DNA from: a virus
Lineage: Duplodnaviria; Caudoviricetes
Length of the DNA: 62,496 nt
IMG/VR virus record: IMGVR_UViG_3300025773_000007
Location: 1 to 62,496 of that record
Strand: one strand, 5' to 3'
Part shown: one piece after another, positions 4,539 through 54,472 of the stretch
Numbering within the stretch: position 1 is the first letter of the stretch
Layout of the letters: the number at the start of each line of letters is the position of its first letter
Position numbers and translations under genes: made by a program
Notes under the pieces: generated by a model
The model's database searches: none
Told to the model about the DNA's origin: nothing
What the model saw: the letters and a program-made list of their open reading frames with translations, nothing else

Positions 4539-5639
4539 ATGTCAAGAATACTTAAAGTCAGTAACGGTGATTACAGAATACAAGTACAAGCTGTTTCACC
4601 TAGCGATACAACTCCTACTATCTTTTTAGATACAGGAGCGTTGCAAGGCCGAGTTGTTATTACTGGTAATCTTGACGTTAAAGGTTCTACAACCACTGTA
4701 GAAAGTCAAAACACAACTATCAAAGATAGTATTATTACTCTAAACAAAGGCGAAACCAGTGCAGGTGTTAATAGTTTATTATCACCTGCATATCAATCTG
4801 GTATTGAAGTTGACCGTGGCACTTTAAACAACAATGCACGTTGGGTTTGGGACGATCATAATGTTAACTGGTATGATAACAAATCAGCTGCAACATCAAA
4901 TGGTGCATGGGTTGCTTATAATGTTACAGACGGCACATCATCTGCCGTAGCAGAAGGTATTAAAGTAAGCAAAATTCAGCCATCAAATGGCGGAGATTTA
5001 CAAGTTGATTTAGGCGGCGGCGATGGTGTATTACGTGTAACACACTACGATGTTAGTGCAGGCGCCAGTTATGCCAGTAGAATTCAAAACACAGATTACG
5101 ATACAATTCCAAACGTTCAATACTTGCAACTTTATGTGGCTAGTACATATTCACCGGGCAGCGGACAAGGACAAGCTATTGTACATAGCATACAAGATAC
5201 TACAAGTGGAACAACTAGTTTAATAAATGCAACAACTAATTTATTAACATTTACTGTAGGTGGAACTTCGTCTACCATGACATCTAGCGGATTATATCTA
5301 GGTGGACAATTATTAACTTATAACGTACAAGTAGCTGGAAATACAACTCCAAATACTATTACAACTATTGGTTCAGGCAATCCTAAACATGTAGTATCTA
5401 CTAATGATAATTTAATTTTAACATCAAATAATACTACAGTTGAAGTAAACGGTGTAATACAATTAGACAATCATTCAGTTCCAGCAAGCAGTGTTTCTGG
5501 AGCAAGTTTAATATATTCAGGAGACCCTGGAACTGGTGTTGGTACACCAGGAAAGACAGGTTTGTATTTTAAAAATACACTGACAACAGACGAATTAATC
5601 AGTAAGAACCGAGCAGTACTTCTAAGTATTTTACTATAA
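4539..5639 (+). CDS. Virion structural/fibre protein
   Basis: 366 aa with the ITGNLDVKGSTTTVES...IITLNKGE...SGIEVDRG fibre-type segment. Hydrophobic C-terminus (RAVLLSILL). Confidence 0.65.
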   Translation: MSRILKVSNGDYRIQVQAVSPSDTTPTIFLDTGALQGRVVITGNLDVKGSTTTVESQNTTIKDSIITLNKGETSAGVNSLLSPAYQSGIEVDRGTLNNNARWVWDDHNVNWYDNKSAATSNGAWVAYNVTDGTSSAVAEGIKVSKIQPSNGGDLQVDLGGGDGVLRVTHYDVSAGASYASRIQNTDYDTIPNVQYLQLYVASTYSPGSGQGQAIVHSIQDTTSGTTSLINATTNLLTFTVGGTSSTMTSSGLYLGGQLLTYNVQVAGNTTPNTITTIGSGNPKHVVSTNDNLILTSNNTTVEVNGVIQLDNHSVPASSVSGASLIYSGDPGTGVGTPGKTGLYFKNTLTTDELISKNRAVLLSILL

Positions 5640-38093: not shown

Positions 38094-39535
38094 AGAAATT
38101 TTTTATAGCAGGTGGTGGAACAGCAGGGTGGGTAGTAGCTAGTATGTTAGCTGCACTTTATAAAGGTTGTGATATTACTTTGGTAGAAAGTCAAGATATT
38201 GGCACTATTGGTGTTGGTGAAAGTACAACTCCTGCTATATTAGATTTTTTAAATCTCAGCGGAATTAATCTAATTGATTTTATAAATTATACCGACAGCA
38301 CTATTAAAGTTGGAATTAATTTTGAAAATTGGACAGGCACTGATAACAAATATTTTCACGGTAATAGAGATTATCTACACAGCTTTGATCTTACTAAACA
38401 AAATGATTTCTGGGGAGTAAGTTACTTACACGATTTTTTAGAAGACGAACACAAGTACAGTAATTATGTAAGAGATAATCTAGTTCCTTTTAATCGTAAA
38501 GGATATCAAGTTGGCGCCCATGCTCTTCATATCAATGCCAACAAATTAGTAGAATATTTGCGTAAATTCTTACAAGGAAAAGTAACTGTAAAAGAAGGGT
38601 TGATTACAGAAGTTAAAAAAGACGAACAAGGAATCTCTAGTGTAAAATTAGAAAGCGGTGAGGTATTTTCTGCAGATGTTTATTTTGATTGTACTGGATT
38701 CAAGCGTGTAATACATCAACATGTCGATTCAAAATGGCATAGTCTTAAAGATTTGCTACCAGTAAATAGGGCTATCCCAAGTCCATTTGATTGGAACGAT
38801 CCTATGAATACTACACACTCTAGTGCATTGTCATCTGGATGGGTATGGCAAGTTCCGTTAAGCAATCGTGTAGGTTCAGGATACGTATACAGTGAAGAGT
38901 TTAGCAAGGACCCAGAAGCAGAATTTGTAGAATATATTAAACAAAAATATAATCGAGTTGTAGAACCTACACGTACAATTAAATTCGAAGCAGGGTATGT
39001 AAAGAACCCTTGGTCAAAAAATGTGGTATGTGTCGGTTTAAGTAGCGGGTTTGTAGAACCATTAGAAAGCACAAGCATACACATGATGTTTCATCAGATT
39101 ATGTGTTTTTCTCAACTATATGATGGCTTAATTAGTGCTAACATCAATAATGTTTACAATAGTTATATGATAGACATGTACGATGATACAGCTAGCTTTG
39201 TTAAAATGCACTATCTTGGCGGTAGAAATGATACTGAATTTTGGAAGTATATGCAGAATTCAAAAAATACTCCTAGGCTAGACAACTTATTATCTATATG
39301 GAATAATCATTTCCCAACAGCAGATCATATTGGACAAAATAAAGACCGTGTAGTCGGTTATAGATTGTTTGCATTACCTGCCTGGATACAAGTATTAGTT
39401 GGGATGAAAATTATTGACAAGTCTTTGATTAAAAAATATATCGATTTTAATCAAATACCTAAGAGTGAAGTAGTAGAAGAACAGTTAGTTACACAACGAG
39501 AGTTCTTAAAGGCTATACAAAATCGGGCCCAATAA
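38090..39535 (+). CDS. Flavin-dependent halogenase (tryptophan halogenase, PrnA family)
   Basis: GGGTAGW, GVGESTTP, STIKVGINFENW, FDCTGF, GWVWQVP, GFVEPLESTSI. Confidence 0.92.
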   Translation: MKKFFIAGGGTAGWVVASMLAALYKGCDITLVESQDIGTIGVGESTTPAILDFLNLSGINLIDFINYTDSTIKVGINFENWTGTDNKYFHGNRDYLHSFDLTKQNDFWGVSYLHDFLEDEHKYSNYVRDNLVPFNRKGYQVGAHALHINANKLVEYLRKFLQGKVTVKEGLITEVKKDEQGISSVKLESGEVFSADVYFDCTGFKRVIHQHVDSKWHSLKDLLPVNRAIPSPFDWNDPMNTTHSSALSSGWVWQVPLSNRVGSGYVYSEEFSKDPEAEFVEYIKQKYNRVVEPTRTIKFEAGYVKNPWSKNVVCVGLSSGFVEPLESTSIHMMFHQIMCFSQLYDGLISANINNVYNSYMIDMYDDTASFVKMHYLGGRNDTEFWKYMQNSKNTPRLDNLLSIWNNHFPTADHIGQNKDRVVGYRLFALPAWIQVLVGMKIIDKSLIKKYIDFNQIPKSEVVEEQLVTQREFLKAIQNRAQ

Positions 39536-40109
39536 CCCAGCCAACTAAAGACTTTCTTACACCTTTAGTAACAGGAGTTACGCTATGAGGTAAGAACGAA
39601 GGGAAGAACACAATCTCATTTTGTTTTAATCTAACAATATTACCAGGATTGGAATCGTGAAATACTAAATTTCCACCTTCAAATTCACTAGGATCATTTA
39701 GTTGGATACTGAAAGATAACTTTCTGCATCTACCGTTTTCTCCTTTAAGAGTTGCATCGGTATGCATGTCGTAAAATCCTTGATCTTCCGAACGATATAT
39801 AGAATACTGTAGTGTTTGAATATGTGTTAGTGCAAACTTATAATAGCCAGCATTAACTTCATTTACAGCATCGGATAATCTTTTATAGATGTTGTCAAAT
39901 GTAGGAGTTTCTTCTAAGAATACGATATCTGTTCTGCGAAGTCGACTATTTCTAGATCCACCGTTTTCTTTTATCTTAGCAGAAATTATTTGCTCAGGAT
40001 GTTGAGATATATAATTTTCTATAAAATTGTGTTGCTCTTGAGTAAAAATATCTCTTGATACAACACACCATGCATCTTTAGTTTTAGATGGATGTTCTAA
40101 AGCCCACAT
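39513..40109 (-). CDS. PKHD-type / prolyl-4-hydroxylase-like 2OG-Fe(II) oxygenase
   Basis: FYDMHTD...RKLSFSIQLNDPSEFEGG...FPSFLPHSVTPVTKGVRKSLVGW. ATG at 40109 preferred to the track's TTG 40124. Confidence 0.9.
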   Translation of the reverse strand: MWALEHPSKTKDAWCVVSRDIFTQEQHNFIENYISQHPEQIISAKIKENGGSRNSRLRRTDIVFLEETPTFDNIYKRLSDAVNEVNAGYYKFALTHIQTLQYSIYRSEDQGFYDMHTDATLKGENGRCRKLSFSIQLNDPSEFEGGNLVFHDSNPGNIVRLKQNEIVFFPSFLPHSVTPVTKGVRKSLVGWVIGPDFV

Positions 40110-40110
40110 A

Positions 40111-41031
40111 TCACTTATTGCCAAAAGATCCTGGTAGATTCTTTGGAATGTTTACACTAGTTCTAAAACTCATTAAGTTTTCGTCGATTATAAAACCAAG
40201 TTCTAGCTCAGTTTTTTCTTCCATAATTGTATATTGGTTAAATCTTAAAAAACTATTACCCCAGTGACGTTCAATCGAAGGACGATACAAATTTAAACGA
40301 GAGCCGTTAGATACTATATAAGGCTTGACCCATATACTATCGATTCTAGTAGATTTTTTGAATACGTTACGTTGTTCTAATATACCTTCGGGGTAATTGT
40401 AAAAATCCCAAGGACCAAAATTAAGCCAATCATTATGGTCGTCTGGTATTACATCCTCGACAATAGTTTGCCCAGTTTGCATTGCTTCTTCAAATGTAGA
40501 ACCTAAAGAATGTATATAGTTTATAGAATCAACATTGTCGCTATCATAAAATTTAAATTCAAATCCAAAACTATCAGGTACTAGTTTACCATCAGGCTTG
40601 AGCCATTTTTTAACATCGTTTAATGTATGCAGACACATTTCGTCTAATAAAAATGGTCCAAAAATTTCATGAATAATTACATCTACCTGTTCAGGCAACT
40701 CTAGTGCCCAACTGGCAGATTCTATAATTTCAAGATTATCTAATTTTTCTTCGTCTTTTAATTTTTGCAATACTTGTACGGCTACTGGATTTGCTTCGAC
40801 AGCATACACTTTACTAGCGCCTGCTCGGATAGCATACAAAGATAGTAAACCTAATCCTGCACCGATATCTAACACAACTTTTCCCTTGCAAGAATGTTTG
40901 ATAGACTTTTCGTAGAATAAATTTCTAGTCTTATCTGTCATTAATCCTCGATACGAGCCAACACCTGTGTAATAGGCTTGTATTTGCCCCATTCTAAAAT
41001 TTTGAAAATCTTCTAGTTGTTCTTTATTCAT
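40111..41031 (-). CDS. SAM-dependent methyltransferase, protein arginine methyltransferase (PRMT)-like
   Basis: LMTDKTRN..Y, VVLDIGAGLGLLS, VYAVE, VDVIIHEIFGPFLLDE (double-E loop), LKPDG.LVP and a late RHW (THW-loop equivalent). Confidence 0.85.
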   Translation of the reverse strand: MNKEQLEDFQNFRMGQIQAYYTGVGSYRGLMTDKTRNLFYEKSIKHSCKGKVVLDIGAGLGLLSLYAIRAGASKVYAVEANPVAVQVLQKLKDEEKLDNLEIIESASWALELPEQVDVIIHEIFGPFLLDEMCLHTLNDVKKWLKPDGKLVPDSFGFEFKFYDSDNVDSINYIHSLGSTFEEAMQTGQTIVEDVIPDDHNDWLNFGPWDFYNYPEGILEQRNVFKKSTRIDSIWVKPYIVSNGSRLNLYRPSIERHWGNSFLRFNQYTIMEEKTELELGFIIDENLMSFRTSVNIPKNLPGSFGNK

Positions 41032-41639
41032 TTTAAGTCCACATTAAAAGCGATACATCTTCGTTCGCCGTCACCCTTGAAAGGATAAACTGTATGCATT
41101 ATATATGCCGGAAATATGTACATATCCCCTACTCTTGGACAAATTGCTCTTGGGCCAAGATTTTGTAAACTAGGAACATGAAAATTGCCAAATATAAAAT
41201 GCAAACAACCATCCAAGCCGTTATTACCATTTTTTTGTATAGTGTTGTATGAGTCTTGAATTTGTTTTGGAACTTTAAGATATAAAATACCACTGAGTAA
41301 TGCATCGTGTGTATGTACTGGATTATAGTCACCGGCATATTGACTAACAATCCAAGATTTTCTAACTTCTAAATGCCTAGCTTCTATGTTTCTAAAAAAT
41401 GGATCATAACTAGATTTTAAATAATCCACAACATATGGTAGTACATCAAACGATTCTGAAAACTCAAATTCTCGTTGTTCGCCTTCTTGTATTAGCCCAG
41501 CTAAAATAGGGCTCATGTCTGCACCTGTTTTAAGGTATTCGTCAGACTCTTTTAATAAACTATCTATTTCAGTTTGTTTTAATTTGGCCTTTAAAATATC
41601 TAAGGACCAAAGTTTACTAATCTCAGCAAATCTAGCCAT
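41028..41639 (-). CDS. Putative 2OG-Fe(II) oxygenase
   Basis: WIVSQYAGDYNPVHTH...LSGILYLKVP...GDMYIFPAYIMHTVYPF...RRCIAFN. Confidence 0.88.
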   Translation of the reverse strand: MARFAEISKLWSLDILKAKLKQTEIDSLLKESDEYLKTGADMSPILAGLIQEGEQREFEFSESFDVLPYVVDYLKSSYDPFFRNIEARHLEVRKSWIVSQYAGDYNPVHTHDALLSGILYLKVPKQIQDSYNTIQKNGNNGLDGCLHFIFGNFHVPSLQNLGPRAICPRVGDMYIFPAYIMHTVYPFKGDGERRCIAFNVDLK

Positions 41640-42252
41640 TTAATAATTCCTTTTTAATTAATTGCTTTAAGGACGAACGCATAGTATTGAAACTAATTGT
41701 AATTCTTTCTTTAGTTTTGTTTCTTTCTGTATAATGTAATAACCAGCTAGGAAATAATACTAGCATTCCGGGCTGACATGGAAATTCTATTTGTCCAGCG
41801 CCGTATGTTGTTTCTTTAGCTAGTATGTCGTTCATTTTAAAAGGGCGAAGCGGAGTTTCAAAAAACAAACTACAACTACCAGATTCTGCATATGGGTAAA
41901 ATGCTCCGCTTATAACACTACCTTCATGTCTGTGAGGAGTTACTTTACCATCTTGTCCAATGATATTAAACCAACTATCAGTGACCACACAAGTCTCTAA
42001 CCCAGTTTTATCAGTATAAGTATCTAGGGCAATTTGTACGTCTGTAAAAAAATCAGATAATTCAGGAACATTTTTTAAATTCTGGTCAGCACCGCCGTAA
42101 CTAGATTGGCCGTTTACGACTAATACATGCTCACGAGTATTCATAGACCGTATTGTATTAACTAGTGTTGAATTGGTATGTTTGGTAAAATCAAAACCTA
42201 TAACAATAGTTGGAAATAATTCGTAAACTTTATGATTTATTTTCTTTTCCAT
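41632..42252 (-). CDS. Putative 2OG-Fe(II) oxygenase (TIGR02466-like)
   Basis: SWFN...PHRH..SVISGAFY...GMLVLFPSWLLHYT...RITISFN. Confidence 0.88.
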   Translation of the reverse strand: MEKKINHKVYELFPTIVIGFDFTKHTNSTLVNTIRSMNTREHVLVVNGQSSYGGADQNLKNVPELSDFFTDVQIALDTYTDKTGLETCVVTDSWFNIIGQDGKVTPHRHEGSVISGAFYPYAESGSCSLFFETPLRPFKMNDILAKETTYGAGQIEFPCQPGMLVLFPSWLLHYTERNKTKERITISFNTMRSSLKQLIKKELLNG

Positions 42253-42791
42253 ACTGTATTCAATGTTAACCTATATTGATCGGCTTCTAATGGCGGTTGT
42301 GTACCTACATGCGGAATAATACTATCAAACATAGCAACTCTTCCGGGAACAAAATCCGATACAAATTCAATATCAGATAAATCATTAGTTCTCCATACTG
42401 TGGGACAGTGCCAGTTTACATTCCAAGAGACATTTAAATAATAAAGAACACTAACAAAGCCTTCAGTTCTTGAATCGCTATGATAGCGAAGTCGATCAAT
42501 TGGTGTTGCTAAATTCATCCATGACCTGCTAAACTCGTAGTCTTTTAGCTGATCAGTAACGACTTTCATACCGGGTAAACTAAACAATCCAAATGATTTT
42601 AAACTTTCTTCGGTCCATAGAGATTTAATTAAAAAACTGGCTTTTTGATCTGTTAGTAGTGTATCAAAACCGGTCGAAATCATAAACGGAATTTGTCTTA
42701 TTTGCTCAAACAAACTGCAACGTTCGTGATAACTTAATAAATTATCATAAAGTTTAATGCTATGTCCAGATTGTGTAGTATGTTCTTTCAT
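42237..42791 (-). CDS. 2OG-Fe(II) oxygenase
   Basis: YHSD...SVLYYLN..W...PGRVAMFDSIIPH...RLTLN. Confidence 0.82.
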   Translation of the reverse strand: MKEHTTQSGHSIKLYDNLLSYHERCSLFEQIRQIPFMISTGFDTLLTDQKASFLIKSLWTEESLKSFGLFSLPGMKVVTDQLKDYEFSRSWMNLATPIDRLRYHSDSRTEGFVSVLYYLNVSWNVNWHCPTVWRTNDLSDIEFVSDFVPGRVAMFDSIIPHVGTQPPLEADQYRLTLNTVWKRK

Positions 42792-43363
42792 ATAAAATTA
42801 AAAGCAATTGATATTCTAGCATCATTTTTATCAGTTGTCAAGTTCTGTCCTACACTATGACGAACCCAACTAGGAAATATTACCAATTTTGATTCTTCTG
42901 GCTCTAGCATCAATGCCTGAGCGGTATATTCATTTTCTTGTTCAAAAAATTGGAGGAAAAATTCACTATCGTCTTGTCTTTCTAAAATAAGATCACCACA
43001 ATTTACAGGACATTTTACATAATAGGTACAACTAAAAAATGACAAAGTATGATTGTGAGATATATTATAATTGTTTCGATTGTTTACATTGAACCAATAA
43101 TTAGATAACTTAGGAATCCTGCTATTTCCAAATTTTTCATATATAACTTTTAATCTGCCTTGTATTTCAGCAATTAGTTTTTCGGTAACAGGTCCAACAG
43201 GTTTAGATAACGGGCGACTTTGCCACCCTCCATTATTGCTTACTTGTATAGGTGTATTTTTTTCAGAATAAATTTTTCTGCATTCTTCAATCAACTGAGC
43301 ATTGTCTATATTTGTAATATAGTCTTCGTATATTTCTGTTGGGAATAAAAATGCACTTTTCAT
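42788..43363 (-). CDS. Putative 2OG-Fe(II) oxygenase (TIGR02466-like)
   Basis: SNNGGWQS, WFNVN...SHNH...SCTYYV, FPSWVRHSV...RISIAFN. Confidence 0.88.
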   Translation of the reverse strand: MKSAFLFPTEIYEDYITNIDNAQLIEECRKIYSEKNTPIQVSNNGGWQSRPLSKPVGPVTEKLIAEIQGRLKVIYEKFGNSRIPKLSNYWFNVNNRNNYNISHNHTLSFFSCTYYVKCPVNCGDLILERQDDSEFFLQFFEQENEYTAQALMLEPEESKLVIFPSWVRHSVGQNLTTDKNDARISIAFNFI

Positions 43364-44805
43364 CGTAATATACTATCAATAAATTTTCTATGATCTACAG
43401 CCCTAGTGAGATCTTGTGCCCTACGCTGTCTAATAGAGTAGGATTCTTGCCTAGCACGTTCTAATAAATTTCTTTGTGTTAATATTTTCTTTATTTTATC
43501 TCTATTGCATTTTTTAAGACCTACTGCAACTCTTGTAAAATTTCCAAAACTAAACATTACACCTAAACTATCATAAAATGTTAAAAAATCCATTTGAGCT
43601 TTTTCATCTAGATCTGCAACTATGCTTGGAGTATTATTGGTCATATAACGCCAAAACTCGCTATCTGTTCTCTTTGTAGTATAACAGAATCTCAAATACA
43701 AGTATACATTTTCATAAAATTCTTGCATAATTTTATTGTAATTAATTCTATCTAAACTACAATAACCTAAACTGTTTAAATGTACAAACTGCCTAACTTG
43801 CTCAACTGTGTGATGTATGTTTGTTGCTTCTAATGGTTCTGTGAATCCGCTTGCTAGTCCAACAGCAATACAATTTCCAACCCATTGATCCTTCCAGTAT
43901 CCGCTTTTAAAAGATAGTACACGGCTAGTGTTGGTTAAATCTTTTTGATAAGTTTGTTTAGTCCACTGAGAAAATTTACTAAATGCTTCATCGTCGGATG
44001 TAAATTCGCTAGAATACAAATAACCTGCTCCCCAACGATTGCTTAACGGTACTTGTAGTATCCACCCATCTGCGCTTGCTTCTGACGTTGTATAAGGAGG
44101 TTGTTTTGTAAATTCATATTCAACTGGATTAGGAATACAGCGGTCGATTGGCAACCAATCACTTTTGTCAACCCACTCTGTATTCATGTGTTTCATCAGT
44201 ACAGTTTGAAATCCGCTAGCATCTATATAAAAATCAGCTGATAATTTACGCCCGTCATTTAGTACTATATGATCTATATTTTCATTATTCTTTACTACTG
44301 AGTCTACAACACCGTCTGTAATAGTTAATTCATTTCGAAATTTATTTTCAATATAACGACTAAACAATACAGCATCTATATGTAGTGCTTGTCCTGCATT
44401 TGGATCTCCAGGAATTAATCCATTGTCCATATATGCGGCATTATACGAAGTATCTGAATCATACTGGTTGTGTGCAATGTCATAAGCAGCTACTAAATTG
44501 TAGTAACTGTCTTGATACTGGCTAAAATTATGATAATAATGTTTACCATCATTTAACCAATTTTTAAATTTAAGTCCTAATTTAACAGTGGCATTAACAT
44601 TTTTAATTAGTTCTTCTCTTGTAATTCCTACAAGATCTAAATATTCATAAATTACAGGAGTAAGACTTTCCCCAACACCAATTCCAGGTTTGCTGTGGTC
44701 ATATACTAGTGTAACATCTACATTAGATTTCCAATATTTTTTAATATAAGTGGCGGCCATAATACCTGCGGTACCCCCACCTACAACTAAAATTTTATAA
44801 GTCAT
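43360..44805 (-). CDS. Flavin-dependent halogenase-family protein (PrnA-like) with variant WxWxIP motif
   Basis: GGGTAG, GVGESLTP, ATVKLGLKF, YIDASGF, GWILQVP, GFTEPLEATNI. Confidence 0.9.
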   Translation of the reverse strand: MTYKILVVGGGTAGIMAATYIKKYWKSNVDVTLVYDHSKPGIGVGESLTPVIYEYLDLVGITREELIKNVNATVKLGLKFKNWLNDGKHYYHNFSQYQDSYYNLVAAYDIAHNQYDSDTSYNAAYMDNGLIPGDPNAGQALHIDAVLFSRYIENKFRNELTITDGVVDSVVKNNENIDHIVLNDGRKLSADFYIDASGFQTVLMKHMNTEWVDKSDWLPIDRCIPNPVEYEFTKQPPYTTSEASADGWILQVPLSNRWGAGYLYSSEFTSDDEAFSKFSQWTKQTYQKDLTNTSRVLSFKSGYWKDQWVGNCIAVGLASGFTEPLEATNIHHTVEQVRQFVHLNSLGYCSLDRINYNKIMQEFYENVYLYLRFCYTTKRTDSEFWRYMTNNTPSIVADLDEKAQMDFLTFYDSLGVMFSFGNFTRVAVGLKKCNRDKIKKILTQRNLLERARQESYSIRQRRAQDLTRAVDHRKFIDSILR

Positions 44806-45398
44806 TTAGTTAAAGCAAACCACGAAGACAATATATACTTGGTGTCTTTAAGTGGAGGATTGCCCCTGTGTGTATGCGTAAACGAACTAGGAAATATAAC
44901 AACAGTCCCTTGACGAGGAGGAATTCTCACACTTTGATGAATGAATTCTGTTTCGCCACCGTCATTGATGTCGTTCAAATAGATAATAATACTTAAAAGT
45001 CGATTGGCTTCTTGTATACTGTTTTGTTCATGATGCCACATATGATAACCTTGACCAGGTTTTGTACGCTGTATCTTAAATGGCAATATTTGTAAATTTT
45101 TAGCAAGATGACTAACACCATTTACCGTGTCTGCATACATGGCAATACATTTAGTTACCGCTTGTATTGCAGGACCAGCTAACTGTCCATTAGTCAACAT
45201 TCGATTAGTGTCTAGTTCTTCTCCTAGATAGTATTGTTGATCGTCCTTGGCACTGATAGGAACTTGGTCTACTTCTTGTCTGTTAATAGTTAAATCGTAA
45301 CCATTTAAATATTCAAAGTAAGAACAAACTTTATTACAATACTCTTTTGATAGCTCATTAGGAAAAACTCCAATTAAATTTTCTATAGTCGATGTCAT
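44802..45398 (-). CDS. Prolyl-4-hydroxylase-like 2OG-Fe(II) oxygenase
   Basis: KIQRTKPGQGYHMWHHE...IIYLND..DGGETEF...GTVVIFPSSFTHTHRGNPP...KYI. Confidence 0.9.
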   Translation of the reverse strand: MTSTIENLIGVFPNELSKEYCNKVCSYFEYLNGYDLTINRQEVDQVPISAKDDQQYYLGEELDTNRMLTNGQLAGPAIQAVTKCIAMYADTVNGVSHLAKNLQILPFKIQRTKPGQGYHMWHHEQNSIQEANRLLSIIIYLNDINDGGETEFIHQSVRIPPRQGTVVIFPSSFTHTHRGNPPLKDTKYILSSWFALTK

Positions 45399-46012
45399 TC
45401 GTTATCCTCGTAATGCGAACTAACGCTATTTTTTCCAAGATTACGAACATTAAAATTATAAGCAACACTGATTCGTTCGTCGTCAGTTAAATTATTAGGC
45501 GTAGTACCATGTATTGTACTACTTCTAAACACAATACACAACCCCTCTTCCGGATCTATGCAAGTTTGGGTACTATTATCCACAGTTGGCCCAGCATGAT
45601 CCGGATCAATTGAATGCATTTGAGGGCATGGATGCATAAACATCAGTTGTCCACTACCTTTTGGTGCTCGGGGATAGTATACAGCACTGATGAAACTGTT
45701 TGAATGGCCATGTGGAGGATGAGTAGTAGCTGTGGCTGTACTAATGTTGGCCCAACTATCCGCAATATACAGCTCATTAAACTCTATATCGTATCCACAT
45801 TCTTTTACAAAATCAAATACAGCACTTTTTACAAAATAATTTACTTTTTCAAATTCTTTAAATTTATGAACACCTGTTTTAGTTTGAAAAAAGTTAGAGC
45901 TACTAGTTAATAATTTGTCTTTGACAACTTCTTTAACATCAGCATGTATGGAAAAATCTAGATTATTATAAAACCCTACGGTAGTAGGGAACATACGAAC
46001 AATTTCTTTCAT
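45395..46012 (-). CDS. Putative 2OG-Fe(II) oxygenase (TIGR02466-like)
   Basis: SWAN...PHGHSNSFISAVYYP...VFRSSTIHGT...RISVAYN. Confidence 0.88.
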   Translation of the reverse strand: MKEIVRMFPTTVGFYNNLDFSIHADVKEVVKDKLLTSSSNFFQTKTGVHKFKEFEKVNYFVKSAVFDFVKECGYDIEFNELYIADSWANISTATATTHPPHGHSNSFISAVYYPRAPKGSGQLMFMHPCPQMHSIDPDHAGPTVDNSTQTCIDPEEGLCIVFRSSTIHGTTPNNLTDDERISVAYNFNVRNLGKNSVSSHYEDNE

Positions 46013-46458
46013 ATCAACTCCACTAAGTCGAATACAGTTTGAAGTTTTGTACGTATTGTTTTGCTCGAAAAGCTATTACGCAGACCTTGGTGTAAGGGTT
46101 TAGGCGCACGGTCGATAGTTGCCCATGCCCAAGCAATGTGTTCATCACTTAGTTCAGGAACAAATTCTTTTTCTATAACACAGAGATAGGTATGAAAGTT
46201 AAACACTTTATCATTTGATACAAATGTTTCTAACGGAATTGTTTTTAAGATTTTTGGTATTGTACCAATTTCCTCAGCAATTTCTCGTTGTAAGCCCTGC
46301 CATGGAGTTTCGCCAGTGATATTAGTACCACCAACTAAACCCCAAGTTCCTTCATGCTTGCCATGTGCTTTTTGTAACAGTAAGAATCTTCGTGTAGATT
46401 TGGCGTAGAACAATGCTCCGCTACAAACTATCGATTCTTTTACAAGACTAGACTCCAT
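46009..46458 (-). CDS. NUDIX hydrolase
   Basis: Nudix box G-x5-E-x7-REIAEEIG preceded by GTWGLVG. Also LSDEH..WAW. Confidence 0.92.
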   Translation of the reverse strand: MESSLVKESIVCSGALFYAKSTRRFLLLQKAHGKHEGTWGLVGGTNITGETPWQGLQREIAEEIGTIPKILKTIPLETFVSNDKVFNFHTYLCVIEKEFVPELSDEHIAWAWATIDRAPKPLHQGLRNSFSSKTIRTKLQTVFDLVELI

Positions 46459-47945
46459 TGACCTGATGTATATACACCCTCAAAACTCTTTGCCCAGGAA
46501 ACTCCGTTCCACAGGTATTGTACTCCAGTGTATATATTCGTTTGCCACACTAAGGTGTCTTTGTCTTGGTTTGCGTGGAAAACTACAGTCCATGTTTCCC
46601 CTGTCCACTCGATGATGTCGTTTACTTCTGCTACGAAATCATGTCCATAGATGTCCTGCCATGCACTAGCACCTTTGCCTGGTGCATTGTGTGTACTACC
46701 TATTTCGTCAATTATCAAGTATCGTGTGCCCACAGCAATAGGCTGATCTGTATCTTGTTTTTGAGGACGTTTTGGATTAAATGATTGTGGATTTATAATA
46801 GCATCAAATGTGCCAGGACTATTAGGTCTATAGCAATGTGATAAATCGTAACCTAATTCGTGATCTAGTAAACCCGCACTATCAATTCCTGTGTTAGATG
46901 TAAGTGTATCAGGATTCCATTGAACATGCATGATTGTATAGTTCAACGGATCGATAGCCACAGTACCTACAATTTGACTACCATTTGCTTGTGTTAAAAA
47001 TAGTCTACTTGAACCTGCAACATATTTTCCAGGGTATTGTTGCATAATGGCCATCCAGTCTACTGGTGTGCCTTGACGTTCTGGAATATCTAATGTAGGC
47101 TCCAATGGAACTGTACTTTCGTGTGGCTCTAATAAAATAGCTTGATTGTTGTATACTTCTAATTTATAACCAGTAATACTGATAGTCAATTCGTCAAATT
47201 GATTTTGAAAAGTTGTAGTCGATCCTAATGGGTCGCTTGATGAACCTAACCCTTCAATATAAGTTCCGCTATTAACAGCAGAACCATGCATGTTATTAAT
47301 AATTTTTGTAATAACACCCAAATGTTTGACCTTAACTGGCGGATTAATCCATATAGGAGTATCTAGTGTTATGGTAGCAATGTCAATTGGTGTGTCATTG
47401 CCTACAGGAACTGTTCGACTATCCCAGTTAATATCATTTAAGTTTAATACAGTTAAACTGGTCCAGTCAATATAATTGTCTGTAGTTTGTAGTTCTAGAC
47501 TAGGATTGAACAAGACTAAAATCTGTTCAAGTATTTGTAATTTTTGATCTGTATTGGCACTCCAAATATCGCACTTCATAGTAAGTTTGAATGGTGTTGG
47601 CATCAAACGTTCAATGGTATAATTTTTACCTTGTTCAGGCAAGTATTTGTTAGTGCGAGGATCTATAGCACGTTCGCGAATATTAACTGTATCTACAAAA
47701 GTTTGATCAGCTAGTCTATCTCGATCCAATGCTAGAGCTGTAACATAGATACTGATACGTGGAACAGAGTTTACAATATTTTCACTGTTTTGTCTAATAA
47801 TGCTAGCTACTTGACGTTCAGCATCTCCATACATTACAGGTATACGATGTAAACTACCGTCACCGTATTTTACCACAAAATTACTAAACGCACGAATAGT
47901 CTGCGTAATATATCGTCTGATTTGCGCATCGTAGAAGAATTGTAT
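46440..47945 (-). CDS. gp15: Tail sheath stabiliser / tail terminator (T4 gp15-like) with C-terminal extension; anomalous start
   Basis: The frame extends upstream of the track's GTG (47876) as IQFFYDAQIRRYITQTIRAFSNF, resembling the gp15 N-terminus (FY...RRY...FSN). Also IPVMYG, PRIS, PTPF.L, QILEQILVLFNP. The nearest upstream in-frame ATG (47996) is followed by an in-frame TAA at 47963-47961. Confidence 0.82.
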   Translation of the reverse strand: MQFFYDAQIRRYITQTIRAFSNFVVKYGDGSLHRIPVMYGDAERQVASIIRQNSENIVNSVPRISIYVTALALDRDRLADQTFVDTVNIRERAIDPRTNKYLPEQGKNYTIERLMPTPFKLTMKCDIWSANTDQKLQILEQILVLFNPSLELQTTDNYIDWTSLTVLNLNDINWDSRTVPVGNDTPIDIATITLDTPIWINPPVKVKHLGVITKIINNMHGSAVNSGTYIEGLGSSSDPLGSTTTFQNQFDELTISITGYKLEVYNNQAILLEPHESTVPLEPTLDIPERQGTPVDWMAIMQQYPGKYVAGSSRLFLTQANGSQIVGTVAIDPLNYTIMHVQWNPDTLTSNTGIDSAGLLDHELGYDLSHCYRPNSPGTFDAIINPQSFNPKRPQKQDTDQPIAVGTRYLIIDEIGSTHNAPGKGASAWQDIYGHDFVAEVNDIIEWTGETWTVVFHANQDKDTLVWQTNIYTGVQYLWNGVSWAKSFEGVYTSGQWSLVL

Positions 47946-47995
47946 AATAGTACAACGGCGTTAAACCGAAGCCTCCTTGTTTATATAGATGTGCA

Positions 47996-49450
47996 TTATA
48001 AATCCGCCTTTGGTCTAAGCACTTTGCTGATGCTTTGTCTTTGTTCTTCTCTATCGTTGTATAAGGTAATAGTCCATTGTCCAGCGTAAGGAATTGTCTG
48101 TTGTTCACCGCCAATTACAGGTAAATTAATTCTTAACAACAATGGACTTGATGGAGTTTTTCTATAAGTTGTAATTAAGTTTGGATAATCACTGACAGCA
48201 TAATCAATTAGTATGTTGTCTAGTTTTAAAACTACATAAATTCCCACTGGAGCAGATGGTAAAGTTGTACTGATAAGACTAACTCCTGCATCAATTTGAT
48301 CTTGTGTAAATGTTGCAAATGTTGTGGCAATTGCATCTGAATAAGTCCAAAGATTATTGTTGATAAATCCAGTTTTAAGTGTGCTACGAGTATCAGTTTG
48401 TGTCATAGTCATGCGTACACTATCTTCTACAGCTACCCATCCGCCTGTGCCAGAATCAAATCTAAACAATCTGTTAGGTAAGAAATCTACACGCAAGAAA
48501 AAGTCATTGTTAGCTGGCGCCGCTGGAAAATTAACACCAAATCCAAACGCATATCCGTTAACTGGAAAACCATCTCCAACCAAGTATCCTGTATAACCTG
48601 TACGCAATGGTACACCGTACGTACCACTGGCAAGTTGTCCTGCATTGCTAGCATTGACAGTTTCATCATCTGCGGCCTGTAGTGTAGTTTGCCCGCCAGT
48701 AGCACTGGCCGCAAGAGTATAAAATTGACGAGTTTCATAACCACTCTTAGGAGCATCTGCTTCAGCTTGGGCAACAACTTGATTGTTAATTTCAATTTCT
48801 TTATTATATGTACTGAGCAAATCTTTAAGAGTAGTTCCTGCAACTGGATCTCCATTGGCATCCAAGGCTTGCTGATTAAAGATTTGTGCAAATTGCTGAC
48901 TATCTGTAATTCGTTTAAGTTTTAATCTGTACAAATGTGGATACCAAGTTACGCTAAATCCTTCGCTAGCACGGCCTACATCTTCGATTACATAATAACG
49001 TGGTAAACTAAAGTCAAAATCGTTAAGAGCAAAATCGTCACGCAAATGCGGAAGTTCTATAACGTCCCCACTGATAGGTTTGCGCCCAATATACTTGATA
49101 AAATCGTTAATGTGTATGGTCATGTACAGGGTATCGTTGTCAATAAACAGGCCAAATTGGCTCAAATTAAAATCAATATTTTGTACATTATAAAGCCCGC
49201 GAATTCTGTAGATTTCCGAGTCGTATTTTCTGTCACGATTTTCTAAAAATAGCAAATCTTGTATGTTTGTTACTGCTGTATTAGCATAATTAGGCTGATC
49301 AGCTGTAGCATTAGCTGGGTCTGTACCAGCACCTAAGTATTTGTGCAGATAGACATCGGTTCCGCCAGCTTGAAACATCTCGCTGGCTTGGCGGTCAATG
49401 AACTTGTAGTCATTGCCCTTTTCTGGTTTATAAAGTGATAAGCGTGGCAT
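47996..49450 (-). CDS. gp14: Neck protein (T4 gp14-like) with C-terminal extension
   Basis: G.DVYLHKY, DLLFLE and LSQFGLFIDND...P..GDVIELP parallel gp14 motifs. Located between gp13-like and gp15-like genes. Confidence 0.75.
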   Translation of the reverse strand: MPRLSLYKPEKGNDYKFIDRQASEMFQAGGTDVYLHKYLGAGTDPANATADQPNYANTAVTNIQDLLFLENRDRKYDSEIYRIRGLYNVQNIDFNLSQFGLFIDNDTLYMTIHINDFIKYIGRKPISGDVIELPHLRDDFALNDFDFSLPRYYVIEDVGRASEGFSVTWYPHLYRLKLKRITDSQQFAQIFNQQALDANGDPVAGTTLKDLLSTYNKEIEINNQVVAQAEADAPKSGYETRQFYTLAASATGGQTTLQAADDETVNASNAGQLASGTYGVPLRTGYTGYLVGDGFPVNGYAFGFGVNFPAAPANNDFFLRVDFLPNRLFRFDSGTGGWVAVEDSVRMTMTQTDTRSTLKTGFINNNLWTYSDAIATTFATFTQDQIDAGVSLISTTLPSAPVGIYVVLKLDNILIDYAVSDYPNLITTYRKTPSSPLLLRINLPVIGGEQQTIPYAGQWTITLYNDREEQRQSISKVLRPKADL

Positions 49451-50632: not shown

Positions 50633-53600
50633 ATGAGTATAACCACTGTAAACTTAGGAAAAATTAGATTAAACTGGCGTGGCAATTGGGCAACCACCAC
50701 AGCTTATAGCATAAACGATGCTGTATATTACGGCGGCAACAGTTATGTTTGTGTAACAGCCAATACATCCAGTTCTTGGTCCACTGATCTTTCATCAGGT
50801 TTTTGGCAAATCATGGCCAGCGGAGCAACAGCCAATACAACAGCTGGTGATATAACTTACTATGGCGGAAGTGGCAATACCAATTTGCCTATCGGTAGTT
50901 ATGGCCAAGTACTAACAGTTGGTTCCAGTGGATATCCTATTTGGCAAAGTCCAGTTATCGAAGGCGATGTATTTTATGTTAGTATCAACGGTAATGACAG
51001 CAACAACGGCACTAGTTTAAACCAAGCATTTAAAACATTAAAATATGCCTGTAGTCAAGTTACAGGACCAGCAACAATTTATGTTAAGACTGGTACATAT
51101 TACGAAACTTTACCTATCACAGTGCCTGCAAACGTTTCTATCGTTGGCGACAGTATGCGTGATACTGTTATTGCAGCATTAACAGGAACTGCTAGTACAA
51201 ATTATGTCAGCGGTGGTAATACAACCACTCTAGTTGTTTCGTCTACCAGCGGTATTTTAGCAGGCATGACTGTGACCGGTACAGGTTATTCAAGCGGGCA
51301 AAAAGTTGTCAGTGTAACTAACAGTACAACATTGGTAATGAGTGCAGTATCGAATTCAACACCAAGTGGCACATTAACATTCACATATCTAAGTACAGAT
51401 GCTAGTCCAGTAGTTAATAATTTAAGTACCATGTTCTATCTAAGTGACCAAACTTTACTACAAGGTTTGTTACTAACTGGTATGACTGGTTTTGCTATCA
51501 ACGGAAGTTATCCAACTGATATTACCCGTGCTACAATTGGCGGTGTTTATTTAAGATTAAATCCTAGCTCAGTAATTACAAAAAGTCCATATGTAAAAGA
51601 CTGTACTGCAAAGAGTACAGGTGGTGTTGGTGCTATTGTAGACGGAAGCGTTCAAGCAAGCGGCAACAAGAGTATGGTGTTCTGGGCCTACAACATGGTG
51701 CTTGACGGCGGTGTAGGTTTATGGTGTGCAAATGGCGGTAAAGCAGAAGCTGTATCAGTGTTCACGTACTATTGCTACATGGGCTATACAGCCAGCGGTG
51801 GTGGTCTGATCCGTAGTATTGCAGGTAATAACAGTTATGGTACATATGGTGCTGTTAGTTTAGGTTATCTAAGTACAGAAACAGCAATTACTGGTACAGT
51901 ATACGGCGGTATGTTAACCTATAACACCGCACTATCAACCGGTACATTCACACAAGGTGAAACAATTACACAAGCAACTAGTGGCGCTACTGGTGTAGTT
52001 ACTAGTGTGCAAACTGGTTACTTGTACTATAAAGCTACCAGCGGAACATTCAATACAACCAACTTAGTAACAGGTGGTTCTAGCGGAGCAACTTTAACTC
52101 CAACAGTAGTAGGCGGACAATCAAATTATGTATTAGTATTGAGTGGAGTAAGCGGAACTATTAGTGCAGGTGCAAGTTTGCAATTTGCATCAGGCGATAC
52201 TAGTGCTTATGTTGTCAGTGCTGTAAGTACAGCTACAGTTAACAGTACAGCGGTTACTATTTTAACTCTAGCACAACAAAAAACCGTGGCTAGTAATGAT
52301 GGTGTTGGAGTTCAAGTTCGTTATAACTTTAGTTTGATTAGATTACAGTCGCATGACTTCTTGCAAATTGGTACTGGCGGTATTGCTACGACAAACTATC
52401 CAGGGACACCAACACAAGGTCCTACTCCAGCTAACCAAATTAACTACACATTCCCAGGTCGTGTTTATTATGTGTCAACAGACGAACTTGGTAACTTTTA
52501 TGTAGGTAACTATTTCAGCGTTAACCAAGCAACTGGTGCAGCTACATTGAATGCTAGTGCGTTCAACTTGAGCGGTTTGACCAGCTTGCGACTAGGTTCA
52601 ATTGGCGCACAACTTGGCGCACAGATTAACGAATTCTCAACAGACGGGACATTAAGTCAAAACTCAGACGTTAAAGTTCCAACACAACATGCGGTTACAA
52701 CTTACTTAGGTGCCGCGTATCAAAACATTAGTCCTGCTGTAGATACAGTAGTGACCACAGCAACAGCAAGTAGTGGAGCAAATATTACAGTCGGAACAAC
52801 AACTGGTATGGTTGTTAACATGACTGTAGTGTTTGGTGCTAACTTAGGTAGTTTGACAGCACAAACTGTATACTATCTATTATCAGCCAGCGGCACAACA
52901 ATCACTGTTAGTCTTGCACCAGGCGGCGCAGCTGTTACAGTTGGAACAACAACTGGACAAAACGTTGCCGTAAACACTGGTTATAGTTTAGGTGTTGCAA
53001 GTAGACGTTGGAGTCACTTGTACGTGGGTCCAGGATCAATTACACTAGGATCTATTACAATTAGCGATGTCAGTGGTACACTACAAGTTACCAGCTCTGG
53101 TAGCAATGCCAATGCAAATATTAACAGTATTCAAAATGGTACTAGTAATGTCACTGTAGCTAACAACGGTACTGTGACAATTGCTTCAGCAGGTACCACA
53201 GCAATTACAGCTACAGCAGTCAGTACAACAGTCAACAACAATTTGATTGTAAGCGGAACACTAACTGTTAGCGGTGCTACTGACTATGTTGGAGCTACTA
53301 ATACAGTTTATACTGACAATTTGATTGAACTACATGCACCATCAGGTGGTGTAGGTGGCACATGGGCTACCAATGACGGTAAAGACATTGGTTTACGTAT
53401 GCACTATTATGCTAACAGTGCTGATCAAAATGCTGCATTGGTATTGGCCAATGACAGTGGTTATTTGGAATGGTACAACACTGGTACAGAAAACGTTAGT
53501 GGCGACTTTGTATCAGCCTCATATGGTACTATCAAGGCCGCCTCATTTTTAGCAACAACTAGTGTGGACAGCAGTAGCACATCATTTAATCTTGTAAACA

Positions 53601-54472
53601 CCACAGCTACAACGTTAAACATTGGCGGAGCGGCAACTACAATCGGTATTGGTGCTAGCACTGGTACAACCACCGTCAATAATCAATTGACTACTAACAA
53701 TGCTGTAGTGAACACTTTGCTAAAAACTGGTTCAACCATTGGCTATACTGATACTGGTATATTGGCCACTTTTGCCAACAGCACAGCTGGATACAACCAG
53801 ATTATTTTACAAAATACCAGCAACAACTCTAGTGCAAGCACAAACTTTAACGTAAGTAATAATTTAGGATCTGCCACAACCAACTACGGTGAGTTTGGTA
53901 TGAACTCTAGTACGTTTACTGGATCTGGCGCATTTAATACAGCAGGCAATGTGTATCTAGCCGCGGCTAGTACTGATTTGGCCATAGGCACATATGGTTC
54001 AAATGCTATACACTTTGTTGTGAATAGCGGCGCAACGGATGCTGCAACTATTTCAAGCAGTGGTGTATTTTCAACCACTAGTCCATCGTTTACAACCAGC
54101 GTAACCACAACTAGTACAACATTTGGTATGTACAATGCCAACGCTACAACAATCAATTTTGGCCAAGCTGCAACCACAATGAATATTGGAGCACCAGGTA
54201 CTACTGTGTACATTGGGCAAAATACTGGTAACTCAATATTGAGTATACTGGGCAATACATCTAGTGGAACAGCAGCCATTACTACCAATGTTACATCTGG
54301 CACATTGAACATAGGTGCAGGTGTCACAGGAACAGTTGTAATTGGCGCTACAGGATCAAACATTTATTTAGGCGGCACAACAACTAGCGATACAACTTAC
54401 GCATACGTGGGTAATAACAAAGTAGCCACTATGGGTCGCAGTATTGCAATGTCCATGGTATTCGGTGGATAA
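50633..54472 (+). CDS. Tail fibre/spike-like structural protein (1279 aa), third paralogue of the giant proteins
   Basis: NLGKIRLNWRGNW start, one CBM-like repeat, FYVSINGNDSNNG...GTYYETLPITVP beta-helix, HDFLQIG...STDELGNF...FSTD...PTQHA, a fibre shaft and C-terminal SIAMSMVFGG. Confidence 0.8.
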   Translation: MSITTVNLGKIRLNWRGNWATTTAYSINDAVYYGGNSYVCVTANTSSSWSTDLSSGFWQIMASGATANTTAGDITYYGGSGNTNLPIGSYGQVLTVGSSGYPIWQSPVIEGDVFYVSINGNDSNNGTSLNQAFKTLKYACSQVTGPATIYVKTGTYYETLPITVPANVSIVGDSMRDTVIAALTGTASTNYVSGGNTTTLVVSSTSGILAGMTVTGTGYSSGQKVVSVTNSTTLVMSAVSNSTPSGTLTFTYLSTDASPVVNNLSTMFYLSDQTLLQGLLLTGMTGFAINGSYPTDITRATIGGVYLRLNPSSVITKSPYVKDCTAKSTGGVGAIVDGSVQASGNKSMVFWAYNMVLDGGVGLWCANGGKAEAVSVFTYYCYMGYTASGGGLIRSIAGNNSYGTYGAVSLGYLSTETAITGTVYGGMLTYNTALSTGTFTQGETITQATSGATGVVTSVQTGYLYYKATSGTFNTTNLVTGGSSGATLTPTVVGGQSNYVLVLSGVSGTISAGASLQFASGDTSAYVVSAVSTATVNSTAVTILTLAQQKTVASNDGVGVQVRYNFSLIRLQSHDFLQIGTGGIATTNYPGTPTQGPTPANQINYTFPGRVYYVSTDELGNFYVGNYFSVNQATGAATLNASAFNLSGLTSLRLGSIGAQLGAQINEFSTDGTLSQNSDVKVPTQHAVTTYLGAAYQNISPAVDTVVTTATASSGANITVGTTTGMVVNMTVVFGANLGSLTAQTVYYLLSASGTTITVSLAPGGAAVTVGTTTGQNVAVNTGYSLGVASRRWSHLYVGPGSITLGSITISDVSGTLQVTSSGSNANANINSIQNGTSNVTVANNGTVTIASAGTTAITATAVSTTVNNNLIVSGTLTVSGATDYVGATNTVYTDNLIELHAPSGGVGGTWATNDGKDIGLRMHYYANSADQNAALVLANDSGYLEWYNTGTENVSGDFVSASYGTIKAASFLATTSVDSSSTSFNLVNTTATTLNIGGAATTIGIGASTGTTTVNNQLTTNNAVVNTLLKTGSTIGYTDTGILATFANSTAGYNQIILQNTSNNSSASTNFNVSNNLGSATTNYGEFGMNSSTFTGSGAFNTAGNVYLAAASTDLAIGTYGSNAIHFVVNSGATDAATISSSGVFSTTSPSFTTSVTTTSTTFGMYNANATTINFGQAATTMNIGAPGTTVYIGQNTGNSILSILGNTSSGTAAITTNVTSGTLNIGAGVTGTVVIGATGSNIYLGGTTTSDTTYAYVGNNKVATMGRSIAMSMVFGG

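Follow-up and report, generated by a model that had tools for sequence, protein, structure and literature searches.

The minus strand of IMG/VR virus record IMGVR_UViG_3300025773_000007, a tailed phage (Caudoviricetes) of which all 62,496 nucleotides (nt) were analyzed and are referred to here as the window, carries a homologue of T4 gene 15 with neither ATG, GTG nor TTG at the place where the gene should begin. An insert of 51 nt directly follows the ancestral gp15 ATG, and comparison with relatives makes it very likely that this is the decayed relic of a homing endonuclease gene (HEG). Synthesis of gp15 probably starts instead on AUA, or the AUU just before it, by means of a Shine-Dalgarno (SD) element and a hairpin that would together form a split ribosome-binding site coupled to termination upstream, the whole being supplied by the 3′ end of the insert.

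The stop codon of the gene in the gp14 position (TAA, 47998-47996) overlaps an ATG (47996-47994) as TAATG, and from this ATG the frame runs ATG CAC ATC TAT ATA AAC AAG GAG GCT TCG GTT TAA, ending after 11 codons at 47963-47961. Past that stop the same frame continues CGC CGT TGT ACT ATT (47948-46) ATA (47945-43) CAA TTC TTC TAC GAT and translates as RRCTII-QFFYDAQIRRYITQTIRAFSNF... over 506 codons. An earlier sequence-only reading of the window had transcribed all of this correctly, including the TAATG overlap, the in-frame TAA and the missing ATG, GTG or TTG. By its matches the open reading frame (ORF) without a canonical start is a homologue of T4 gp15. It is found by Pfam PF16724 (1.8e-22, 80 bits with a cut-off of 25), whose profile begins at FFYD, also by phrog_11196 and phrog_227, and by the T4 gp15 structures 4HUH and 3J2M (E 6e-6), chain residues 4-146 aligning with query residues 3-151 such that chain residue 4 falls on query residue 3, counting from ATA. 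Full-length matches to 80 loci were obtained.

The earliest canonical start codon in this frame is a GTG at 47876, and initiation there, leaving 23 upstream codons untranslated, would give a truncated gp15. That product would lack QFFYDAQIRRYITQTIRAFSNF, the most conserved part of the family, within which FFYDGQIRRY is kept through synonymous changes, and the residues lost are just those that align with T4 gp15 from residue 4 onward and with the start of the Pfam profile. Homologues that routinely start at this GTG had been named in the sequence-only reading as a finding that would speak against anything unusual; in relatives the position is occupied by V, L or I codons, and a start at the GTG is very improbable.

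The junction is genuine and not an assembly error. It is identical in two other viral contigs (L001 and L002), and Logan contigs from four further freshwater runs, none of them marked as a potential source of the assembly, span 47940-48000 with zero differing letters, so that neither an ATG at 47945 nor a sense codon at 47963, for which a check of raw reads had been advised, is seen. In the window the 26-nt core of the insert has a single occurrence where chance would give 0. When the viral collection was scanned for exact matches to the 20 specified core bases, 45 stretches were found, every one of the 45 directly before a gp15 gene, and scans with looser patterns of 14-15 nt gave mostly chance matches, with at least 25 further cassette copies among the matches listed. 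Far from being unique and unconserved, as the sequence-only reading had allowed that it might prove, the insert is carried by dozens of related phages. A dead gene or a sequencing artefact might be suspected from the missing canonical start codon, but the letters are identical across independent contigs, the 501-codon ORF is intact, and at least 48 distinct variants share the same architecture, some with an intact HEG next to an intact gp15; the suspicion can practically be discounted.

Among the 80 related gp15 loci, 75 reach the N-terminus, five having been dropped as their match began inside the gene. Of the 75, 67 have a plain junction, at which gp14 stop and gp15 ATG overlap as TAATG, and proteins that begin M(Q/E/L/D)(F/H/W/Y)FYDGQIRRY. 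An insert is present in the other eight (L001/2, L003/4/65, L014/15 and L056), and in all eight ATA or ATT stands exactly at the position of the ATG of the other 67; the 3′ part of the insert is near-identical among these eight, whose gp15 proteins are 57-100% identical. Excision of the 51 nt in silico yields MQFFYD, the N-terminus of the relatives, which bears out what had been read from the window's letters, namely that relatives without the insert would start this way.

A census of 48 unique cassette variants found by pattern gave, for the codon equivalent to the ATG, ATA in 11, ATC in 13, ATT in 7, TCG in 16 and TCG with an extra codon in one; ATG, GTG or TTG was at the start position in 0 of the 48. 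An AUH codon (AUA, AUC or AUU) in frame after the last in-frame stop is present in 34 of the 48, often in tandem, as with AUU-AUA in the window. A second search, using the endonuclease protein instead of the core, gave 75 loci with 47 unique junctions, some of which have ordinary gp15 starts of the TAATG, TAGTG, ATGA or SD plus ATG kinds. One diverged, core-bearing copy (L359) has ATG exactly at the position in question, and two others (L372 and L365) have one extra nt in the spacer, their AUU shifting along with the gp15 frame. In a further diverged lineage of 13 loci (L324-L335 and L381; around 2017-2061) an SD and a hairpin are followed by 7 nt and AUC, and a 1-nt loss moves the HEG stop downstream such that it overlaps AUA AUC AUC in the gp15 frame. 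Together, the ATG of L359, the AUU that moves with the frame, the L324 lineage and the other solutions mark the position as the start of gp15.

The intact form of the insert is a gene of 169-188 codons at the same site in relatives, beginning M(H/Y)IYKFTH.E...CYIGQT and ending EASV*. Intact copies match Pfam PF01541 (29 and 24 bits; cut-off 22.6) and phrog_314 'homing endonuclease' (1.6e-26 and 9.1e-29), and cleavage and homing are the role predicted for them as members of the GIY-YIG family. The intact gene opens with the ATG that overlaps the gp14 stop as TAATG, ancestrally the start of gp15. A graded set of internal deletions, with 69, 63, 44, 41, 33, 28, 19, 17, 15, 14, 12, 11, 10, 9, 8 and 5 codons, retains the N-terminal MHIY.. 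and the C-terminal ..EASV* (examples are MHIYKFTHIESGRSYIGQRVWYQKEASV; MHIYKFTHTKEASV; MHIYINKEASV in the window; and MEASV), and in five variants everything 5′ of AAGGAGG is gone. With a 5′ part that ranges from 0 to about 560 nt among variants, the insert lends no support to RNA excision, one of the routes to gp15 that had been proposed from the window alone. In one copy (L119, positions 5222-5330) TGA is found where close relatives (L099) have TGG.

The course of events suggested is that a free-standing GIY-YIG HEG inserted just 3′ of the gp15 ATG and took over that ATG, which as part of the TAATG with the gp14 stop would be coupled to gp14 translation, while gp15 was left with a replacement initiation region from the 3′ end of the cassette. 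The HEG would later have been deleted internally, to 11 codons in this phage, whereas the 3′ module, on which gp15 would rely, had to be kept.

The cassette is patchily distributed. When each junction is scored as plain TAATG or as anything else, the latter including 11 rows with an HEG and a canonical gp15 start, a tree of 116 distinct gp15 proteins needs at least 10 changes of state as against 32-45 with shuffled labels; in the protein-based sample (56 distinct proteins, 50 plain and 6 with the cassette) at least 3 are needed. Short contigs from samples of the same lakes (runs X21 and X22) match the window at 47939-47979 in the core only, their flanks encoding other gp15 N-termini, and so several cassette-bearing phages co-occur there. 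A mobile cassette would account for the patchiness, for a core that is nearly the same in diverged hosts and for these core-only contigs.

Common to the copies are AAGGAGG, a hairpin with TAA in its loop, 7 nt, and AUA, AUU or AUC at the ATG site. The core is invariant as compared with HEG proteins that are 59-85% identical and gp15 proteins down to 57%. GGAGG, GAGG or GGGGG is present in 48 of 48 census variants, and the distance from the invariant G at the core end to gp15 codon 2 is 10 nt in 47 of them, though the letters of the spacer vary freely. The coordinates of these elements in the window are collected in the table.

Features of the gp14-gp15 junction in the window, and loci assigned to the UCG class
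Feature	Coordinates or loci	Strand	Remarks
AUA at the exact AUG position of cassette-free relatives	47943..47945	minus	proposed start (or the AUU just upstream)
Spacer UACUAUU (7 nt), hairpin to start	47946..47952	minus	includes in-frame AUU 47948-47946
Putative hairpin CUUCGGU-UUAAC-GCCGUUG	47953..47971	minus	directly 3′ of the SD; relic UAA (47963-47961) in loop
Shine-Dalgarno-like AAGGAGG in the last relic codons	47972..47978	minus	26 nt before AUA
Probable GIY-YIG homing endonuclease relic, MHIYINKEASV plus TAA	47961..47996	minus	retains the initial 4-5 and the final 5 codons of the intact gene
gp15-type tail sheath stabiliser/tail terminator gene	46440..47945	minus	501 codons counted from AUA
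gp14-position virion structural gene	47996..49450	minus	from the ORF list; phrog_11591 'virion structural protein', 2.9e-89
UCG class, census	L083, L085, L093, L094, L113, L116, L128, L167, L171, L173, L209, L103, L082, L100		
UCG class, endonuclease-protein search	L321, L336, L341, L375		

The hairpin has the general form CUUCGGU-UUAAC-RCCGNNG across copies, and a G/A polymorphism within it retains either U.G or U-A (23:22). Diverged cores form full helices of 6-7 bp by way of changes on both strands (CGUCGG/CCGACG, ACUUGG/CCAAGU, CAGCGG/CCG-a-CUG and CAUCGG/CCGGUG), the paired changes being found in L356, L365, L336, L360/L372 and L359. In a covariance-model alignment of 47 matches with 27 distinct rows, preferred to one by MAFFT that had misplaced 1-nt bulges, 80% of the hairpin cells are paired in register, sliding of the partner lowering this to 18-52%, and both sides have changed in three pairs. 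Pair counts on the pattern-selected alignment are uninformative since the pattern itself fixed the core, but the G that closes the extended helix is kept although the search pattern did not demand it. These features make the hairpin plausible, not demonstrated. The C(UUCG)G tetraloop of the sequence-only reading does not hold, UUCG lying in the 5′ arm and not in the loop of the predicted fold; nor is UUCG conserved, diverged copies having CAUCGG, CGUCGG, CAGCGG or ACUUGG. Matched ATA codons and complementary ends, which had also been pointed out, are real in the window but absent from relatives such as L003 and L088.

Translation of the relic itself appears to matter. In 27 of 28 relic variants, the sole exception being L119, the ATG that overlaps gp14 is in frame with the core UAA, and counted as distinct deletion architectures 20 of 21 are in frame (binomial p 4e-9 against the one third expected for neutral deletions, the p-value assuming independent events). 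The middle of the relic peptides is not conserved. The relic UAA lies 15 nt upstream of the start position, and in the five variants with no relic ORF the gp14 stop itself is 16-22 nt before the core UAA. Selection thus seems, as judged from these sequences, to act on ribosomes running into the core and terminating at the relic UAA, and the upkeep in frame of otherwise meaningless ORFs is a clean signature of selection on translating and not on the product.

In the initiation mechanism proposed for gp15, which we regard as probable, the hairpin would shorten the 26 nt between the SD (GGAGG ending at 47972) and the AUA at 47945 to about 13 nt if the inner stem forms, or to about 7 nt if the extended one does. 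A near-cognate isoleucine-type codon, in the window AUA with AUU before it, would then be read by the initiator tRNA. Ribosomes that finish at the UAA in the hairpin loop would probably open the hairpin and pass to the weak start, with low and coupled gp15 output as the outcome. The T4 virion contains six copies of gp15, and with so few copies per virion low output would be suitable. The arrangement combines a distance from SD to start of more than 20 nt, as with T4 genes 25 and 38 but with no canonical AUG start in the window, and an in-frame AUH at the homologous AUG position where no canonical start is available, as with infC and pcnB. In T4 genes 38 and 25 a hairpin between SD and AUG is reported to shorten the separation from 22 to 5 nt and from 27 to 11 nt, respectively. 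AUA, AUC and AUU are described in preprint literature as initiating at 1-2% of the AUG level in one E. coli system, and other codons at 0.1-1% of AUG with the N-terminal Met retained; with an optimized initiation region in vitro an AUA mRNA is reported to have behaved like an AUG mRNA.

Several points weigh against the proposal. In other systems near-cognate starts are reported at 0.02-3% of AUG depending on the construct. In one reported reporter with no SD, in which UAAUG was changed to UAAua, AUA was not a restart codon when ribosome recycling factor was active. For the window's hairpin the inner 4 bp alone are predicted, at a weak -3.3 kcal/mol, and the junction folds no better than shuffled sequence (z 0.9 and -0.4). 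The covariation in the hairpin alignment is not significant, 56 of 500 column shuffles reaching its score and 47 of 500 its percentage paired. The near-absence of AUG at the start position, where it is found in one diverged copy, is unexplained by the model, and it can only be speculated that over-expression is selected against or that the cassette-bearing junction is thereby shielded from the endonuclease. Finally, 14 of the 48 census variants, the UCG class, have no in-frame near-cognate codon, so that either there is a further mechanism for these or the real one does not depend on the codon.

Non-canonical initiation at AUA was nevertheless the one of the four routes put forward in the sequence-only reading to survive comparison; hopping, readthrough and RNA excision are unsupported, and the probable descent of the insert from an endonuclease gene was beyond what the letters of the window could show. 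Bypassing of the gene 60 type, with the relic translated, take-off at its stop and landing at AUA, would put the relic peptide on gp15. It is brought to mind by a stop codon in or beside a small hairpin with CUUCGG, by an SD-like sequence close by, by an insert length that is a multiple of three, by transport in a mobile endonuclease cassette like that of the T4 bypass and, in the UCG class, by a UCG in the core that matches the UCG before codon 2. The features expected of bypassing were taken from a preprint by Manning & Atkins. A stop right after the take-off codon is present (UAA after GUU), though this is trivial for any ORF end. Matched take-off and landing codons are not: GUU precedes the stop, the downstream GUN triplets are all out of frame, and the codon before gp15 codon 2 is AUA (AUH in 31 of 48 variants, UCG in 16), while the matching UCG of the UCG class precedes GUU and not the stop. 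No mini-SD (GAG, GGG, GGA or AGG) is found 5-7 nt before the AUA, where the spacer is UACUAUU, and UUCG is not conserved. The upstream peptide, nuclease or relic, has 5-188 residues with no conserved nascent-peptide signal and is not the gp15 N-terminus, and in five variants no ORF enters the core in the relic frame. Hopping is hence very hard to credit.

Readthrough of the UAA, or continuation in frame after termination, would give gp15 with an N-terminal extension, and for this it can be said that 44 of the 48 variants have gp15 in the frame of the core UAA, the relics being in frame in 27 of 28, and that ribosomes are reported to be able to continue in frame with UAA if the recycling factor is absent. 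However, a UGA interrupts the gp15 frame after the core UAA and before codon 2 in 16 of the 48, in 4 of the 48 gp15 and the core UAA are in different frames, and the five variants mentioned have no upstream start. Where the HEG is intact a tail protein would be joined to a nuclease of 169-188 amino acids, the residues encoded by the six linker codons are not conserved, and gp14 ends at TAA, which is therefore a stop in this phage. A product of this kind is highly unlikely.

Another way to gp15 would be a start at the UUG right after the inner hairpin (47955-47953) followed by a +1 frameshift within four codons. An NUG is present 13 nt before codon 2 in 41 of the 48 variants and follows the gp15 frame in the four with +1 spacing; 18 of the 48 have a mini-ORF of the form NUG-(0-1 codon)-NNN-UAA that ends 0-1 nt before AUH or at AUCG, and the scheme would bring the UCG class under the same explanation. 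Yet 6 of the 48 have UCG or GAG and no NUG, all six having an in-frame AUH, and only the G is invariant, which fits a C-G pair closing the helix. There is no common shift site, the window having UUG UAC UAU UAU A with neither a stop nor a slippery run. A start at UUG with a shift is accordingly thought quite unlikely.

The UCG class itself has NUG-NAC-UAA-AUC-G and then codon 2 (UAC for UAA in two variants), with the AUC one nt out of frame. It includes phages with both an intact endonuclease and an intact gp15, and its AAAUCGR can pair with the core UCGGUUU. In another type (L355 at 1501-2060, L319 and L323) the HEG stop is followed by an SD, GGAGGG, 6 nt and a GUG that is one nt out of the gp15 frame, with a run of seven Us after it (GUG GAU UUU UUU AUG vs GGA UUU UUU UAU), and slippage on the U run may be involved. 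For these two classes a non-cognate start whose position is set by geometry, a +1 shift on reaching the mini-ORF stop, and slippage are all possible. Frameshifting on a U run was dropped for the UCG class, EFFYD-type variants having no U run. A special tRNA was also considered: a related 221-kb phage of the UCG class (the record that holds L375) has a cluster of 41 tRNA genes (L418; G001:C1:5000-19500), none with the anticodon CGA. One of three CAU tRNAs in that cluster (L418:13440-13513) has an initiator-like U.U mismatch at 1:72 and is without the three anticodon-stem G-C pairs, and at L418:9501-9590 there is a 90-nt 'tRNA-Ile(UAU)' with a long extra arm.

The cassette might set the P site by geometry, SD and hairpin plus 7 nt, and not by codon-anticodon pairing, in which case any triplet would serve. 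This is unlikely. If true, the UCG variants would represent an essential gene initiated on a non-cognate codon, or else on a 4-base AUCG or by a +1 shift after a two-codon mini-ORF, and the relic upstream ORFs would stay in frame for the sole purpose of delivering terminating ribosomes to the start site. What remains of the cassette would then be an addiction module, whose loss requires recreation of the ATG.

As to the surroundings, the name gp14 is given to the ORF upstream on position only; it has no Pfam match. The ten ORFs 3′ of gp15 (39513-46458, minus strand) overlap one another by 4-19 nt, in agreement with the string of ten downstream genes of the sequence-only reading. The first of them encodes a NUDIX hydrolase (46009..46458; PF00293, 4.9e-16) and overlaps the end of gp15 by 19 nt. 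On the plus strand, adjoining the gp14-position gene, an ORF of 1279 amino acids (50633-54472), rich in T/S/G/A/N repeats, looks like a fiber or large structural protein. A tRNA scan of the window found none, an Rfam scan of 47700-48200 with E up to 1 gave a single chance snoRNA match below threshold, and the junction had no DNA match in the annotated phage collection. Sites in a sigma-70 pattern scan are no more numerous than in shuffles; the TATATAAA stretch inside the relic was considered as a candidate T4-type late promoter.

No account of an endonuclease gene at the gp14/gp15 junction, or of a gp15 started on AUH, was found in the open-access literature that was searched. What appears new is the combination, in dozens of phages, of an HEG that captures the ATG of its host gene with an essential structural gene thereby obliged to start on AUH. 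If the proposed start is right, in dozens of freshwater T4-like phages gene callers cut 23 codons off an essential tail gene or fail to find where it begins, and beside introns and inteins on the one hand and the gene 60 hop on the other there is a third way for an HEG to reside in or against an essential gene. The proposed non-AUG start in its defined SD-hairpin setting provides, in some 50-60 natural sequence variants that include one AUG variant and one class with no near-cognate codon, material for studies of start-codon selection, coupling and reinitiation.

In mechanism the closest known case would be the split ribosome-binding site of T4 genes 25 and 38, a likeness which the sequence-only reading had aptly drawn. 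There too a long distance (27 and 22 nt in T4, as against 26 nt here) divides the SD from the start and a hairpin lies between them, and both sites are intercistronic, between late structural genes of a T4-like phage. In contrast, the start here is AUA or AUU and not AUG, the hairpin is weaker with the stop of the upstream ORF in its loop, and the module is on a mobile cassette in scattered lineages instead of being inherited within one clade. A further parallel is with the AUU starts of infC and pcnB in E. coli, for which a near-cognate isoleucine-type start with low or regulated output has been reported. They differ in that AUA and AUC are used here as well, the gene is a phage structural gene and the codon is imposed by a mobile element; autoregulation of the IF3 type is not implied.

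Among endonuclease genes, mobE between nrdA and nrdB, which is reported to start at a UAAUGA overlapping nrdA, and other free-standing seg and mob genes of T4-like phages are likewise inserted between conserved genes, with an HEG start that overlaps the upstream stop and so suggests coupled, low-level translation. Unlike mobE, the HEG at the gp14-gp15 junction begins on the ATG of the gene downstream, which is left with no canonical start. In logic the nearest relative would be the cassette of mobA and gene 60, and the likeness to gene 60 in the sequence-only reading stands in this sense only, an expression module on a mobile endonuclease cassette, and not for the mechanism. In both, an RNA module that rescues expression travels with an HEG to one site of one essential gene, and for mobA and gene 60 too the endonuclease is reported to decay and the module to outlive it; some cassettes of the gene 60 type are reported to carry GIY-YIG enzymes. 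The gp15 cassette has no matched codons, no conserved nascent peptide and no mini-SD for landing, and, inserted right where its gene begins, it need only provide a new site of initiation where gene 60 requires a hop.

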